Positions 50,401 to 56,400 of a stretch of 64,000 nt of DNA are shown here, piece by piece. The notes under the pieces were generated by a model. The model had not been told where the DNA came from, ran no database searches, and worked only from the letters and a program-made list of their open reading frames with translations. A program made the position numbers and the translations under genes. The stretch's first letter is position 1, and each line of letters starts with the position of its first letter. The DNA is from Euglena gracilis. Taxonomy: Eukaryota. Location of the stretch: assembly GCA_039621445.1 (NCBI GenBank), contig CP154954.1, positions 48,215,847 to 48,279,846 on the forward strand, written 5' to 3'.

Positions 50401-53400
50401 TTTGTCTTCCAAATATTTTGTGTGCATGTTCATCCTAACCCTATCCCTTCAATTAACAGTATACCTCCTTTTATCTTCCAAATCTTTTTGTGTGCATGTT
50501 CACCCTAACCCTATCCCTTCAATTAACATTATACCTCCTTTCATCTTCCAAAACTTTTTGTGTGCATGTTCCCTTCAATTAACAACGTAACTCCCTTTAT
50601 CTTCCAAATCTTTTGTGTTCATGTTCATCTTAACCCTATCCCTTCAATTAACAATATACCTCCTTTTGTATTCCTAATCTTTTTGTGTGCATGTTCACCC
50701 TAACACTCCTTTTGTTCTTCGAATTTTCTTTTGTGTGCATGTTCACCCTAACCCTATCCCTTCAATTAACAACATAACTCCCTTTATCTTCCTAATTTGT
50801 GTGCATGTTCACCCTAACCCTATCCCTTCAATTAACAACATAACTCTTTCGTTTTCGAATTTTCTTTGTGTGCATGTTCACCCTAACCCAGAGGGTTTTT
50901 TCCCAGGACCCAGGGGGGTCCGGACCCACCACCCACCCCCTGGGGGGATCCACTTTTGGGGGGGGTCAATGAAAGAAAACCCTGCCTCCAGCGGGGTACC
51001 CACTCCCCCTCCCCCACACGTCATGACACTTTTTAAAAACACCTGCCCCCAACCTGCGTGGCCTGTGGCCCTGCAGGCCACAGAGCACAACCATTATGAA
51101 ATTGGGATGCTTGCCATCCCGATTTTTGACAGACGTCTTTTTGTCTGCTCGTGGAAGCCACCCAAGCTCCAATTCAAATAGAAATGGCACATCGTGTGCC
51201 TTGTGTGGCACGAGTTAGAAATTGCTGAAACAATCTTTTGGCTTGACGACAAACCCCAGAACTTCAAAACTAGGGTTTGCGAAAAATGCACTACACCAGC
51301 CAGGGTATGCGTCGCCATATCCGATCGGGGGGGGATTGCATGCAAACTGCCGCGCCATACCTGAGCAAAGCCAGGAGCATCCAACACTTGCCAGGGGTGG
51401 ACGGCCACCGTCACCAGGAACGAGTGGGGTTGGAGGAACTCCTTCGCCTCCTGCAGCAGTGCAGCATACCCTGCGGGAGTGTGTGTCTGTGTGACGTGTG
51501 TGTATGTGTGTGTGCCGGGTATTTGAAGCAGCAGGCAATCTGCACCCCCACCCCCCCCTGGCAGGAGGAATCCTGACCAAAAACGTAATTGGTGTGAGAT
51601 AAAATTTTGATGTACTAATGTTGATGTACTGTGGCGCCCGGTTACACCCCTCCGGGCAGTCGTCGTGTGCTGGCAGGCATAAAGGAGGTTAGTAGCCCCC
51701 CACCAAGGAGTAAACTTCGAATAAGGCTTCTGGTTAAAGACCATGGGGGTCCACTGGCTAGCCATTTTGATAGACAATGGAAAAAAGCAACTAGCAGACC
51801 CCCACTGCACCCCGGGGCATTGGGGGAGTCCGGGGACCCCGATGCACCGATTGGTGGGAGCATGGTGAAAAGAGAAATAGAGGTGTGTGTACGATCACAT
51901 CCGATGTCATACCTGCATAAAGATATATACCTAAAACAGAAACACATGTGTATGTGCACACACACGCACGCACACACACACACACACACACACACACACA
52001 CACACACACACACACACACACACACACACACACACACACACACACACACACACACACACACACACACACACACACACACACACACACACACGCACACGCA
52101 CACACACATCATGCACATCGGTGTGCGTGTTGTGGTGCAGGACGGCCAAGCTCAAAAGGCACCGTACAGATAATTTTGGGGGAAAAAACTGGCTTGACCA
52201 GGACGCACAGGTGAGGTGCCTTCCCACCGACTCCTGCCAGTTGCCCCCCCCCCCCAGCAGGGGCAAAGAAAAAAAAGGATAGACCGCCACACCCTGCCAC
52301 TGCTGGGGGCTGGCCTGGCCCTCCCAGTCGAAGTCCACCCCGTCCAGGCACCTATGGTCACTTCCCATTTTGGTGCTCTGGTCGGCCCTGGTCGGCCCTG
52401 GTCGGCCCTGGTCGGCCCTGGTCGGCAAATAGTCGGCCATAGGTGGGGGTATCCGTCACAGAAAAAAAGATTGTGAAAAATGACCCAAAATTACCAAAAG
52501 GGCGTAAAATGGCCAATATGCCATAAAATATGCTCATATTGACCCAAATTAGCCCAATATTTGCCAAATCAGTGACAAATGGCCCCCAAGTTAGCAAAAA
52601 CTGATCCGTAATGGCCAAAATGGGTGTAAAACTGGAGATTTGTGGGGAAATTATCCAAAAATGGGTTGAGTTCTTCAAAATATACAATATACTGGCACAA
52701 AATGCTCAAAAATGGTCAAATTGGACCAAAAAGAGACCAAAAAATGGGCAAAATAACAAAAAAAGGTCGAAAATGGCTTTAAATGGTCAAAAATGGCCCC
52801 AGAGCAGGACAAAATGGCCCAAAATTACAACAAGTGCGCAAAAAGTGGCCAAAAATGGTCAAAATAGGTCAAAATTGGTGAATTATGGTGACAAATCGGC
52901 CAAAAGGGGACAAAAGCGACCTAAAATGGCCAAAAGCGGCCAAAAGTAGCCAAAAGTGACAACATGAGCCAGACGAGCCAGAAAAATCTCAAAATCTGGG
53001 ATAAAATTCCTCATTCTCACTGAAAAAATGACATCAATCAGAAAGAAGTTGCGCGGTCGGCTGCGGTCGGCTGCGGTCGGCTGCGGTCGGCTGCGGTCGG
53101 CAACCCACCTATGACAGTCCTGAAACCCGCGGTAACCCGCGGTCGATGCTGCCGGGCCAGCATCGTCCTGCATCGCCCAGCACCGCCCAGCATCATCAGA
53201 GGTGCTTGGTCCAGAGGGAAAGCTGCCGAATTCCTTCATCCATTCCCCTTCGGTCGGCCAATCACATGCAAGTCGGCCCTGGTCGGCCCTGGTCGGCCCT
53301 GGTCGGCCCTGGTCGGAACCCCCACCTACGGGGGTCCTGAAAATCATAGTCGGCCCTGGTCGGCCCTGGTCGGCCCTGGTCGGCCCTGGTCGGCCATAGG

Positions 53401-56400
53401 TGCCTGACCCCGTCCAGCCCGTGGGCCTGCAGGAACGCCAGCGTGCTGCCCAGGAACTGCCGCCGCTTCTTCGGGCTGTGGGAGGAGAGGGAGGTTGGGG
53501 GGGGCAGGGGGGCCGGTGGCCTGGGCGCCAAAACCACAAAGGAGCGGGGGGGGGGGGGTTGGGGCCGGCTGGGCACAGTGCGACGAGGGGCCCAGCAAGC
53601 AACGTCCACCTGCTCGACCCTGCCAATGGGTGGGTCTGCAGCTGGGGCGTGGAGCCGTTTGGAAGCCACTGCGTCAGACAGCCGGGAATGCACACGTCTT
53701 GTTGAGTCACACAATTTTTTTGTCAATTTCAGGGAAAATGCATCTGCATATCCATTTTCTCCCGGAGGAGGCAGACCCCGACAAAATGTGAGACAAGTGA
53801 CAAGACAGGTGCTCTCATGAGCACCGGCACAGAATAATTTGGGTGTGTGTCCAATGGCGGGATCCCCTGCGGTGCAGGGTCGGAGGTCCCACAGCACAAC
53901 CCGGACCGGACCCCGGCACACCTGCGGAAGAGGGCGGGGATGTGGGCCCCCCGGCCGCCGCCCCCCACGGAGACCAGCAGCCGCAGCCCGCGGTGCCGTG
54001 CCTTGGCCGCTGCGGCGGCGGTGAGGTGGGCGGGCGGCAGCCGGCCGGCGTCCAGCACCCCGGAGGCGTGCGGCTCCACCGAGAAGAGGACGAGGTCTGT
54101 GGCGGGCGGGCCTTTCCCGGGAGGAGGTGGTGGGCGAAAAAAACGCCGGAAACTGTTTGGCTGTTTTCTTCAACTTTGTGGCCATTTTTTTTTCCTGGAC
54201 CTGGGAATGGACCCCCCTGGGGGGTAATGACTATCTGGTTTTCCAAAAAAAAGCTACTAGTTTTTGGAAGACCGGAGTGACCCCTCAAGCTGGAACGGGG
54301 GGTTCAAGCCAAACCCAGACATTTCCTCTGAGAATACCAGTCGGTCACTTCAGGGGGTCGGCCAATGACTAAATAATTGTATGGGGGAACCCCATGGCGT
54401 GCCGGTGCGGGCGAGAGGGCCGTGGGCAACCGCGTCGGGTGGGGGAAAAGAAGTCCAGTTGTACAAGCGGCACAACGAGCGGAAACGGGGGGGGGGTAAA
54501 GATATGTGTTTCTGGACATCGGTGAGCAGCAGCAACAAGCAGCACACACAGAACATACACACACATACAAACATTTGTTCCCTATCATATTTGTCATGGA
54601 CTTTGCATGACAAAAAAAATCAGTTTTCCTTCCTTCCTCCCTTCTTTCTTTCTTTCAAAAAAAAACAAATTCCCAGGTCACACACAAAATATCTGCCTGT
54701 CAAAAGAGGATGCAAGCTTTCATTCGTTGTCTGTGAGCGTGTGTGTTGCGTGTTGTGAGTGTTGTGAGCGAGCGAGCGAGCGAGCGAGTGAGTGAGTGAG
54801 TGAGTGAGTGAGTGAGTGAGTGAGCGAGCGAGTCTGATGAAGTGTGTCTGCCACACACCGCTGACAAGTCCGGCCACACGATCGAGACGACGTCCCGGAG
54901 CCCAGTCCTCCACTGCCGTTGGCAGGCCGCTGCTCACCAAGCCCCCCCCCCCCCGAAAATTGGCTTCGGCCAAATTCGTGGGTATGGAAGGGGAGGCCAA
55001 CCCCCCTAAGAGGCCTAATTGGCGAGTGAGGGCAGGAAAGACAAACCTTCAGGGGGTGTGATTACGTACCCTTGTTGACCCAAAGGGCCTCGGCCCTGCT
55101 GCCATCCCCTGGGCCTCCCTCAAAGCATCGCCCTGCGTCCCAGGCGGTACTCAGGCAGATAACCCACGACGGCGAAGGGGCTGACCGCCCCGGTGGGACT
55201 GGGGCCTGAGACAGGGAAGGAATGTGCCCCCAGGCTGTCGGATTGCGAGGGACGCACGAGGAAATACCAAACCTCAAATAATATAACGGTGAAATCATTG
55301 GAGTATCTGAAATCAAGAGCCGCGTTGTGTTATAAAGGTACATTGTCTGAGGAAAATTATCTGGCTCAAAAGACTCCAAATGAAAACTTTTGGCATTTAT
55401 TTCCGATTTTTAAGGTTCTGACACTTTATTTGACGTTGAAAACTGGTTCAATCTTTCTTGAGGCAGGGGGTATGTTGTTTGGGTGGCCTATGTACAGGAG
55501 GTACATTATCTGGGGATATTGCTTGAGGATATTTGGGGGCTGTACCAATATTATCCTGTGGAGCAAGTTACATCAGATGCCAACCCCTCCAATGGCGGAG
55601 GTTTGGGACACACTATATGTGCCTCAATTGCAAATTTATCATTGCCTCTCAAGCCAGGGAAGATGCAATATGCTCTGAAAATGACATCGTCACAGAATTA
55701 TCAGCACCCAGTTATCAAGGTGCATTGCTGTTAATTTTATGCTTCAAACATCAGAGATTATGCCGCATGTTCTGAAAATCGCATAATCGCAGCAAAACCG
55801 GTGAAGGTTGTTTGCTTGAAATTTTCCCTTCAAAACCAGAATGTTTTGTTTCCGAAAAAAAACAACACGGAAAACCACAGAACAGCCCAAAAATCATATG
55901 GAATGTGGGTCCCTAGCACGTTGTTGTGAAAGAACCTACCAAAGTATCGGGACATTGTCTGCGTCGGCATGCTGTTCCAGACACAAATGCATTGTACCGC
56001 AATCCTGCCAAAATAACCAAGGATGGCATATGACGCAGCTGAAGCAAACAAAAATGGGGTAGGCCCTGTGGTCCTGGGAAGCCAAACAGCTCAGTTTCGT
56101 AATGTTTGCTCCCAATCTGGAAGAGGCACTGAACCTTCCAAAGCGTTCTTCGTCTAGAATGTGCCTGTGTGCGCATTCCCTTCATTTGTGTGCAGATGTG
56201 CATGATGGCCAAAATAGACTGCACGAAACAAGTGCATTCCCGGCCGTCTAAGACTACGGGGTGCCTCCCTCGTTGCAAAGTTTTTTTTTAAAAATCATTA
56301 TCATTAATGTGGTTTCTCTCCGAGGTTGTATGCCTCTTGCACTGCACTTCCACTGCATGCATTGTTCGTGGAGGAGGTGCACTGCTGGAAGGATTATATG

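Follow-up and report, generated by a model that had tools for sequence, protein, structure and literature searches.

A window of 64,000 nucleotides (nt) from Euglena gracilis (contig CP154954.1 of assembly GCA_039621445.1, positions 48,215,847 to 48,279,846 of the forward strand; coordinates below count from the first base of the window) carries a GH18 (chitinase-like) gene on the minus strand, between positions 47480 and 56959, and the exon that encodes its catalytic motif is interrupted by a non-coding element of 1062 bp, bounded by terminal inverted repeats (TIRs) and flanked by a target site duplication (TSD) of 8 bp (Table 1). The E. gracilis transcriptome protein P0001 (EG_transcript_56751, by its EukProt label) is 100% identical to exons 1-4 and fixes introns 1-3; the remaining exons were placed with the full-length GH18 proteins P0004 and P0006 (315-321 amino acids, aa; JGI name “GH18 family chitinase”), the closest full-length relatives found (41-42% identity over ∼280 aa). 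Joined in silico, the eleven exons encode 328 aa without a stop, and this product aligns with P0004 and P0006 over 277-283 aa, continuously through the stretch ...AHGLDGVDFDWEGQ... that spans the interrupted site. Apart from the element, the gene is intact; the alternative that the whole gene is a pseudogene was rejected, since every other exon has an open frame and can be aligned with GH18 proteins. Among its first ten introns, eight are of the GT-AG type and two are nonconventional (the element and intron 2). Five of the eight GT-AG introns start with GTGTG, which is the consensus of conventional introns in E. gracilis (PMC11170887).

The element (52345-53406, minus strand, 51% GC) has a 13-bp TIR, CAGGCACCTATGG, at 52345-52357 and 53394-53406; the two copies are complementary at 13/13 positions, and the next position, 14, is a mismatch. 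The TSD, ACCCCGTC on the plus strand and GACGGGGT in gene sense, abuts both element ends (copies at 52337-52344 and 53407-53414), and a CAG that happens to follow it lengthens the direct repeat to 11 nt (52337-52347 and 53407-53417). On the minus strand the junctions therefore read ...CTG GAC GGG GT / CAGGCACCTATGG ... CCATAGGTGCCTG / GACGGGGT GGAC TTC GAC TGG GAG. The exact 13-mer occurs at only these two sites in the window; with up to two mismatches there are 7 matches versus an expectation of 2.42, and related elements end at three of the additional sites. The insertion point (slash) falls within LDG/VDFDWE, the DxxDxDxE catalytic motif of the gene. Deleting the element together with one TSD copy in silico restores this stretch, whereas with the element retained the reading frame is shifted (1070 mod 3 = 2) and a stop appears 54 codons on. 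Of the 12 registers in which the cut could fall across the 11-nt repeat, none gives GT..AG borders, the nearest being GT..GG, and the element-free joint ends AC..TG on the plus strand. The initial annotation had described a 1062-bp element with a perfect 13-bp TIR and a perfect 8-bp TSD, lying at 52337-53414 within the catalytic motif of a chitinase gene, with no GT-AG pair that mends the frame; all of this holds, the interval being the element plus both TSD copies and the gene a real, otherwise intact GH18 gene.

The element contains four 10-bp tandem arrays, all perfect: three (CCGACCAGGG)n arrays near both ends, two of which (53272-53316 and 52378-52426) are identical to the subterminal one listed in Table 1 and in the same orientation, and one variant array of CCGACCGCAG (4.9 copies, 53053-53101). 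The AT-rich core shows a loose 10-bp period, and no Pfam family was found in four open reading frames (ORFs) internal to the element. The element is composite, since the module at 52462-53208 carries, inside the element's own TIRs, a terminus of the CAAG type that bounds other elements in the window. RNA and DNA reads of other copies part at the borders of such modules, with loose ends at 52467, 53052, and 53102-53133.

The window was scanned for paired CAR...YTG ends that match as inverted repeats at 10 or more of 13 positions and whose flanks repeat each other over a set length. For a flank repeat of 8 nt, this pair scan found 7 pairs, compared with a mean of 0.00 (maximum 0) in the 40 dinucleotide shuffles used as the control. 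Flank repeats of 5, 6, 7, 9, 10, and 11 nt gave 2, 2, 2, 0, 0, and 0 pairs versus shuffle means of 2.92, 1.12, 0.23, 0, 0, and 0, so that between 5 and 11 nt the 8-nt class alone stands out. The 7 pairs represent 6 elements, two of the pairs differing in the right end assigned to the element at 43146. Element 20684-21201 is a seventh, with a TIR identity of just 8/13 but a perfect 8-bp TSD. Two of the elements (72-1524 and 30939-32072) share 84% identity with the chitinase element over a core of ∼225 nt, and the three have a common architecture, in which 10-bp arrays come after the TIR and again after an internal TIR-like motif; their TSDs are all perfect, all 8 bp long, and all different. Three elements of the window (72-1524, 20684-21201, and 30939-32072) end in CAAG...CTTG and not in CAGG...CCTG. 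In the DNA run X1 (see below), the summed word depth, which is not a copy number, is 0.65-1.4 million across the element versus 49-98 in the unique flanks, and 14,532 X1 contigs match the whole stretch with its flanks (5,226 at ≥99% identity and 9,306 at 95-99%). On these figures, the element family (or its set of modules) is both young and highly abundant.

The combination of TIRs, a TSD of fixed length, no Pfam-recognizable coding sequence, and many dispersed copies is that of a non-autonomous TIR transposon, similar to a MITE (a miniature transposable element with inverted repeats), with 1062 bp at the upper edge of what is called miniature. The classification as a DNA transposon with TIRs and 8-bp TSDs, also proposed in the initial annotation, is thus borne out by the very abundant dispersed family and by relatives in the window with different 8-bp TSDs. 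Repair of a double-strand break with filler DNA, which has been proposed for a newly gained gapC intron of E. agilis with 8-nt direct repeats (PMC4770533), could in principle have created an intron here with no transposition, but the perfect 13-bp TIR, the many-copy family, the relatives with different 8-bp TSDs, and flank repeats that are exclusively 8 nt long are hallmarks of transposase-mediated integration; we disfavor the filler origin and consider it very improbable.

Exact scans of public metagenome contigs returned 0 matches to a 22-nt element end and 0 matches to a 28-nt pattern of the CAAG-type end. No ORF across the empty-site joins of the other six elements is convincingly coding, so they provide no second example of an exonic insertion. 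None of four ORFs outside the element has a Pfam match above the cut-off (Herpes_LMP1 appears below it, on a repeat-derived ORF of element 72-1524), and the longest ORFs of the window are of low complexity. One further candidate element lies in intron 10 of the GH18 gene, at 48571-48990, with ends CAGGCTTTTGCTT and CAAGCTTCTGCTT (11/13) and an 8-bp flank repeat, CTCACCAT and CTCTCCAT, that has one mismatch.

The geometry of the insertion agrees with the code of euglenid nonconventional introns. Using knock-ins in E. gracilis, Nomura et al. (2025) arrived at the code 5′-N3CDG-/-CH'GN5-6 before a purine (R), plus pairing of the sequences that adjoin the two motifs; synthetic introns of 50 bp carrying these features alone are spliced in this species, and splicing is lost when a single base of CAG or CTG is substituted (PMC12501133). 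Natural nonconventional introns reach several thousand nucleotides, and excision as full-length circular RNA is cited for this class (PMC11282704). The element supplies GGT-CAG, ten further paired bases, and CTG-GACGG/G, where the slash marks the start of the downstream exon, and thus has every part of N3-CDG...CH'G-N5-6 followed by a purine; its ends are complementary at 13/13 positions, and cofolding of the two element ends pairs them. For an 8-bp TSD written ABCDEFGH, the upstream exon keeps ABCDE when the cut is made 3 nt ahead of CAG, and the downstream exon keeps FGH when the second cut falls 5 nt past CTG; because the 3 + 5 spacer nucleotides add up to one TSD, the mRNA would regain a single copy with no scar. 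The spacer lengths in this arithmetic were set independently, by the knock-ins (PMC12501133), and the positions that the initial annotation had given to CAG (+4 to +6) and CTG (-8 to -6), with spacers equal to one TSD, are indeed present. Milanowski et al. (2016; PMC4770533) described paired rules for the junctions, which may then be positions 5 and 6 of the TSD, seen twice.

Two comparisons bear on how general this geometry is. Intron 2 of the same GH18 gene has exactly the N3-CAG / CTG-N5 arrangement before a G, with no trace of a TSD; it looks like an old, decayed insertion of the same kind, because the duplication is gone. The three CAAG-type relatives would fall outside the published code, in which G is obligatory as the third base of the motif, and should not be spliceable; CAA/TTG copies are predicted not to be tolerated in exons, from which they would be purged. 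Judging by its termini, the family appears to hold both “intron-competent” and “intron-incompetent” members.

We examined the locus in four sequencing runs. X21 and X24 are raw RNA reads, whereas X15 (“RNA?”) and X1 (“DNA?”) bear guessed labels; RNA runs were chosen by species label or as guessed RNA. X15 covers exon bins only, as a transcriptome does, and X1 is even at 49-98 over introns and flanks, as genomic DNA is. The element-free joint 52336->53407 (a skip of 1070 nt, slidable by 11) is present in one X21 read, no X24 read, one X15 contig, and one X1 unitig. The X15 contig (545 nt, depth 7.95) also contains the joint 53475->53922; since GT-AG intron 4 has been removed from it as well, it represents mature mRNA, and element-free mature mRNA with exactly the predicted junction exists. 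The X1 unitig (117 nt, depth 31.6) consists of 19 nt to the left of the joint followed by 53407-53504; since this includes 29 nt of intron 4, it is a genomic empty site and not cDNA. A 19-nt overhang is what is expected from a k=31 graph for k-mers specific to the empty form, and the neighboring X1 unitig ends at 52347, the last base common to the filled and empty paths. From this we infer that both forms are present in run X1, which makes the insertion polymorphic, and the recent gain that the initial annotation had suggested is supported by this empty site in DNA. As for the removal from RNA that had also been suggested, the element-free joint is seen in RNA, but the allele it came from is ambiguous, given the empty allele. 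No back-joint at the element ends is among the joints listed for the four runs, a result that is uninformative for a multi-copy sequence.

The existence of the empty allele opens a different explanation, in which the filled allele is null. Its transcripts would keep the element and be broken down, or would not be made in the first place; the empty allele would be the source of all mature mRNA, and the match with the intron code would be a by-product of the transposon having CAG/CTG termini. The empty genomic allele has a depth of 31.6 versus 49-98 in the flanks, the joint in RNA is identical in sequence to that allele and comes from a single read and a single contig, and transcripts retaining the element would meet the stop after 54 codons and be hard to see, as such transcripts appear to be removed by nonsense-mediated decay (PMC12501133). 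On the other hand, the element has every feature of the code that is experimentally required in the same species (PMC12501133), 1070 nt is within the range of natural nonconventional introns, some of which are several thousand nucleotides long (PMC11282704), and intron 2, with the same geometry, is removed from the same GH18 gene. We therefore regard a null filled allele as unlikely.

What we consider likely is that the element is a young non-autonomous transposon in the catalytic exon of the GH18 gene, still polymorphic, which carries a complete nonconventional-intron signal and is removed at the RNA level. A non-autonomous cut-and-paste DNA transposon, of a family with perhaps some ten thousand copy-equivalents (from word depth, which is not a copy number), would have inserted in the exon coding for DxxDxDxE. 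Its CAG start, its CTG end, a stem formed in RNA by the 13-bp TIR, and the 8-bp TSD would together make up a full intron signal with no further mutation, and cuts placed 3 nt ahead of CAG and 5 nt past CTG would remove 1070 nt, the equivalent of the element and one TSD, and bring back LDGVDFDWE. Transcripts of the filled allele would thus be spliced by the nonconventional machinery, and the argument for this step is reasonably strong because the element carries every code requirement set by knock-in in E. gracilis.

Several points weigh against this explanation. The RNA support is thin (one X21 read, none from X24, and one X15 contig), and because the RNA joint has the same sequence as the empty allele, these molecules are not assignable to the filled one. 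The reading of X1 as DNA and of X15 as RNA is based on coverage patterns, their labels being guessed. When the region of 1151 nt is folded as a whole, the two TIRs do not pair with each other in the structure of minimum energy, as internal TIR-like motifs compete. The element also departs from two weak rules of nonconventional introns, both positions being G in the N3/N5 register. Lastly, the family copies and TSDs that were inspected are those inside the 64-kb window alone.

Table 1. Coordinates of the chitinase element, of neighboring parts of the GH18 gene, and of other TIR elements in the 64-kb window.
Feature	Position	Strand	Remarks
5′ TIR, gene sense CAGGCACCTATGG	53394..53406	-	CAG is at intron positions +4..+6
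3′ TIR, gene sense ...CCATAGGTGCCTG	52345..52357	-	CTG is at intron positions -8..-6
Upstream TSD copy, GACGGGGT	53407..53414	-	N3 register: first 5 nt exon, last 3 nt intron
Downstream TSD copy, GACGGGGT	52337..52344	-	First 5 nt intron, last 3 nt exon; exon begins with purine G
Predicted nonconventional intron 5, 1070 nt	52340..53409	-	N3-CAG / CTG-N5 register: GGTCAGGCA...CCTGGACGG
Subterminal 10-bp tandem array	53349..53395	-	CCGACCAGGG x4.7; repeat search
Internal module	52462..53208	+	Homologous to the right part of CAAG-type elements 72-1524 and 30939-32072; includes terminus ...CATCAGAGGTGCTTG ending at 53208
Exon 5 (...PKKRRQFLGSTLAFLQAHGLDG)	53410..53475	-	Contig joint 53475->53922; exon join
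Exon 6 (VDFDWEGQASPQQWQG)	52293..52339	-	GH18 protein alignment; GT-AG intron next
GT-AG intron 4, 446 nt	53476..53921	-	Removed in RNA: joint 53475->53922 in X21 and X15
Intron 2, nonconventional, 221 nt	54918..55138	-	ACG-CAG...CTG-CCAAC/G; ends 10/13 complementary; mapped with P0001
Related element	72..1524		TIR CAAGCACCTCTGG/A, TSD AGAACGAC
Related element	30939..32072		TIR CAAGCACCTCTGG/A, TSD GTCCGGAC
Related element	20684..21201		TIR CAAGCACC (8/13), TSD GTGACAAT
Unrelated-family element	14061..14767		CAGGGCAGAA ends (11/13), TSD GGTGGCGG
Unrelated-family element	35728..36196		CAGAC... ends, imperfect TIR of ~24 nt, TSD GTTCATGT
Candidate element, less secure	43146..43426		CAGGGGTTTTTT ends (12/13), TSD CCCCCAAC; homopolymer-rich context, second possible right end at 51045

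The superfamily of the transposase that mobilizes the element is a separate question, for which neither hAT nor an alternative such as Merlin is favored outright. Elements of the hAT superfamily have TIRs with the terminal consensus 5′-YARNG and a target preference of nTnnnnAn, and those of the Ac/Ds type carry subterminal short repeats. Mobilization by a hAT transposase whose gene lies elsewhere in the genome is possible, though we hold this assignment with clear reserve. The TSD is strictly 8 bp in the pair scan of the window; the termini are CAG or CAA, and so fit Y-A-R, in 7/7 elements, two of which (14061 and 43146) have the full YARNG; 7 of the 14 TSD half-sites match the hAT target (binomial P = 0.028); and the subterminal repeats resemble those of Ac/Ds. 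In addition, in 43 of 55 nonconventional introns the second base of the downstream exon, corresponding to TSD position 7, is A (PMC4770533). The chitinase element itself is a poorer fit, as its CAGGC matches 4/5 of YARNG and its TSD half-sites match the hAT target in 0/2 cases; moreover, no hAT transposase was seen, the sequence examined being that of the window, and a full-text literature search found no paper linking hAT elements to Euglena introns.

It is somewhat less probable, and on balance unlikely, that Merlin (IS1595-like) or another superfamily with 8-bp TSDs, such as P, is responsible instead of hAT. Two Merlin families have been described in E. gracilis, in which the DDE motif is conserved, the TIRs are nearly perfect, and the TSDs are 8 bp long (Lopes et al., 2021; PMC8101967), and Merlin is the sole superfamily with 8-bp TSDs that we found documented for this species, in the available text of that paper. 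Although the duplication agrees with the 8-9 bp of Merlin, Merlin TIRs have a conserved terminal 5′-GG-3′ (PMC8101967, citing Feschotte, 2004), and all seven window elements start with CA. The hAT label of the initial annotation is consequently not established: the chitinase element falls short of the hAT consensus at both its terminus and its target site, and 8-bp TSDs are documented for Merlin too.

The idea that nonconventional introns arose from MITE-like elements was put forward by Milanowski et al. (2014; PMC3935182) and has been restated since (PMC12501133, PMC11170887, and PMC12621601). The E. agilis gapC intron is a strain-specific case, attributed there to break repair (PMC4770533), and 71.8% of the introns of E. 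agilis are nonconventional (PMC12501133). A 2024 review in Mobile DNA terms CAG/CTG the TIRs and the junction repeats TSD-like, and its available text does not mention hAT (PMC11282704). In the literature the origin of these introns is termed a mystery and the machinery that removes them is termed unknown. In the full-text literature, as distinct from subscription journals and supplements, we found no publication that names a source family, links the 3- and 5-nt spacers to an 8-bp TSD, or assigns a superfamily.

The euglenid nonconventional introns described so far resemble the element in their non-GT-AG borders, CAG at +4 to +6, CTG at -8 to -6, the adjoining stem, the 3-nt and 5-nt spacers, the purine of the downstream exon, and the direct repeats at the junctions (PMC3935182, PMC4770533, and PMC12501133). 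The element differs from them in being an intact copy of a very abundant TIR family, with a perfect 8-bp TSD and an empty allele, whereas the published euglenid cases, as far as the available texts go, come without a source family. The introners of Micromonas, Aureococcus, and Amoebophrya are likewise non-autonomous TIR insertions that make introns (PMC11282704 and PMC7789003), with a TSD that aids scarless removal and inverted repeats that juxtapose the splice sites (PMC11282704). Those of Micromonas and Aureococcus use canonical splice sites, in contrast to the Euglena code of the chitinase element, which looks non-spliceosomal and splits the duplication 3 + 5; the Amoebophrya elements have direct repeats of 3-5 nt and inverted repeats of 8-20 nt (PMC7789003), compared with an 8-bp TSD here.

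Two groups of transposons are also close. Ds, a hAT element, shares with the chitinase element an 8-bp TSD, a short TIR beginning with CAG or CAA, subterminal repeats, and an exonic insertion that is removed in RNA (as the element presumably is). With Ds, the spliceosome acts through cryptic sites and removal is imperfect, whereas removal of the element would be exact. That Ds can act as an intron in maize is attributed to Giroux et al. (1994) in PMC3935182. The E. gracilis Merlin families share the species, the 8-bp TSD, and the near-perfect TIRs, and differ in having TIRs that typically start with GG and an autonomous structure with a DDE_Tnp_IS1595 transposase, where the element starts with CA and is non-coding (PMC8101967).

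Some features of the host gene and its surroundings were recorded in passing. The Euglena GH18 gene, with at least 10 introns, encodes a hydrophobic segment at the N terminus, and it may be of bacterial origin, with both intron types acquired later. A scan of 47000-57500 at the Rfam gathering thresholds gave 0 matches. At position 53999, in exon 4, the X1 contigs all have C where the window has T (depth 97.6/97.6), which is either a strain difference or an assembly error. The introns hold several tandem repeats, namely (GTGA)19.5 in intron 3 (54755-54833), (CA)76 in intron 6 (51957-52108), and a 70/125-bp repeat in intron 7 (50338-50849); (CATA)128 lies upstream of the gene (57883-58388), and further off the region 38000-40300 has an extreme strand skew (GC skew -0.35, AT skew +0.62) in low-complexity sequence of a dinucleotide type.

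On the whole, what the initial annotation observed is confirmed, and its interpretation is supported in part. The element is an unusually clean instance of the hypothesized transposon-born Euglena intron, new as an example and less so as a concept. The MITE hypothesis has so far been without a concrete source family, and this locus supplies an identifiable, abundant one with intact TIRs and a TSD; it also combines filled and empty alleles, an exact match to the code, and the 3 + 5 = 8 relation that links the chemistry of transposition to the geometry of the splice sites. The findings suggest that a DNA transposon family has been recently active in E. gracilis. More tentatively, and short of an even chance in our estimation, the nonconventional code of Euglena may be the direct footprint of one superfamily of TIR transposons with 8-bp TSDs that is still mobile in E. 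gracilis. If so, every insertion with CAG/CTG ends would be splice-competent at birth, in either orientation and without a scar, given symmetric termini and spacers that sum to the TSD length (3 + 5), and this would account for most Euglena introns being nonconventional and “slidable”. The origin of nonconventional introns thereby becomes testable, both genome-wide and with the existing knock-in assay.

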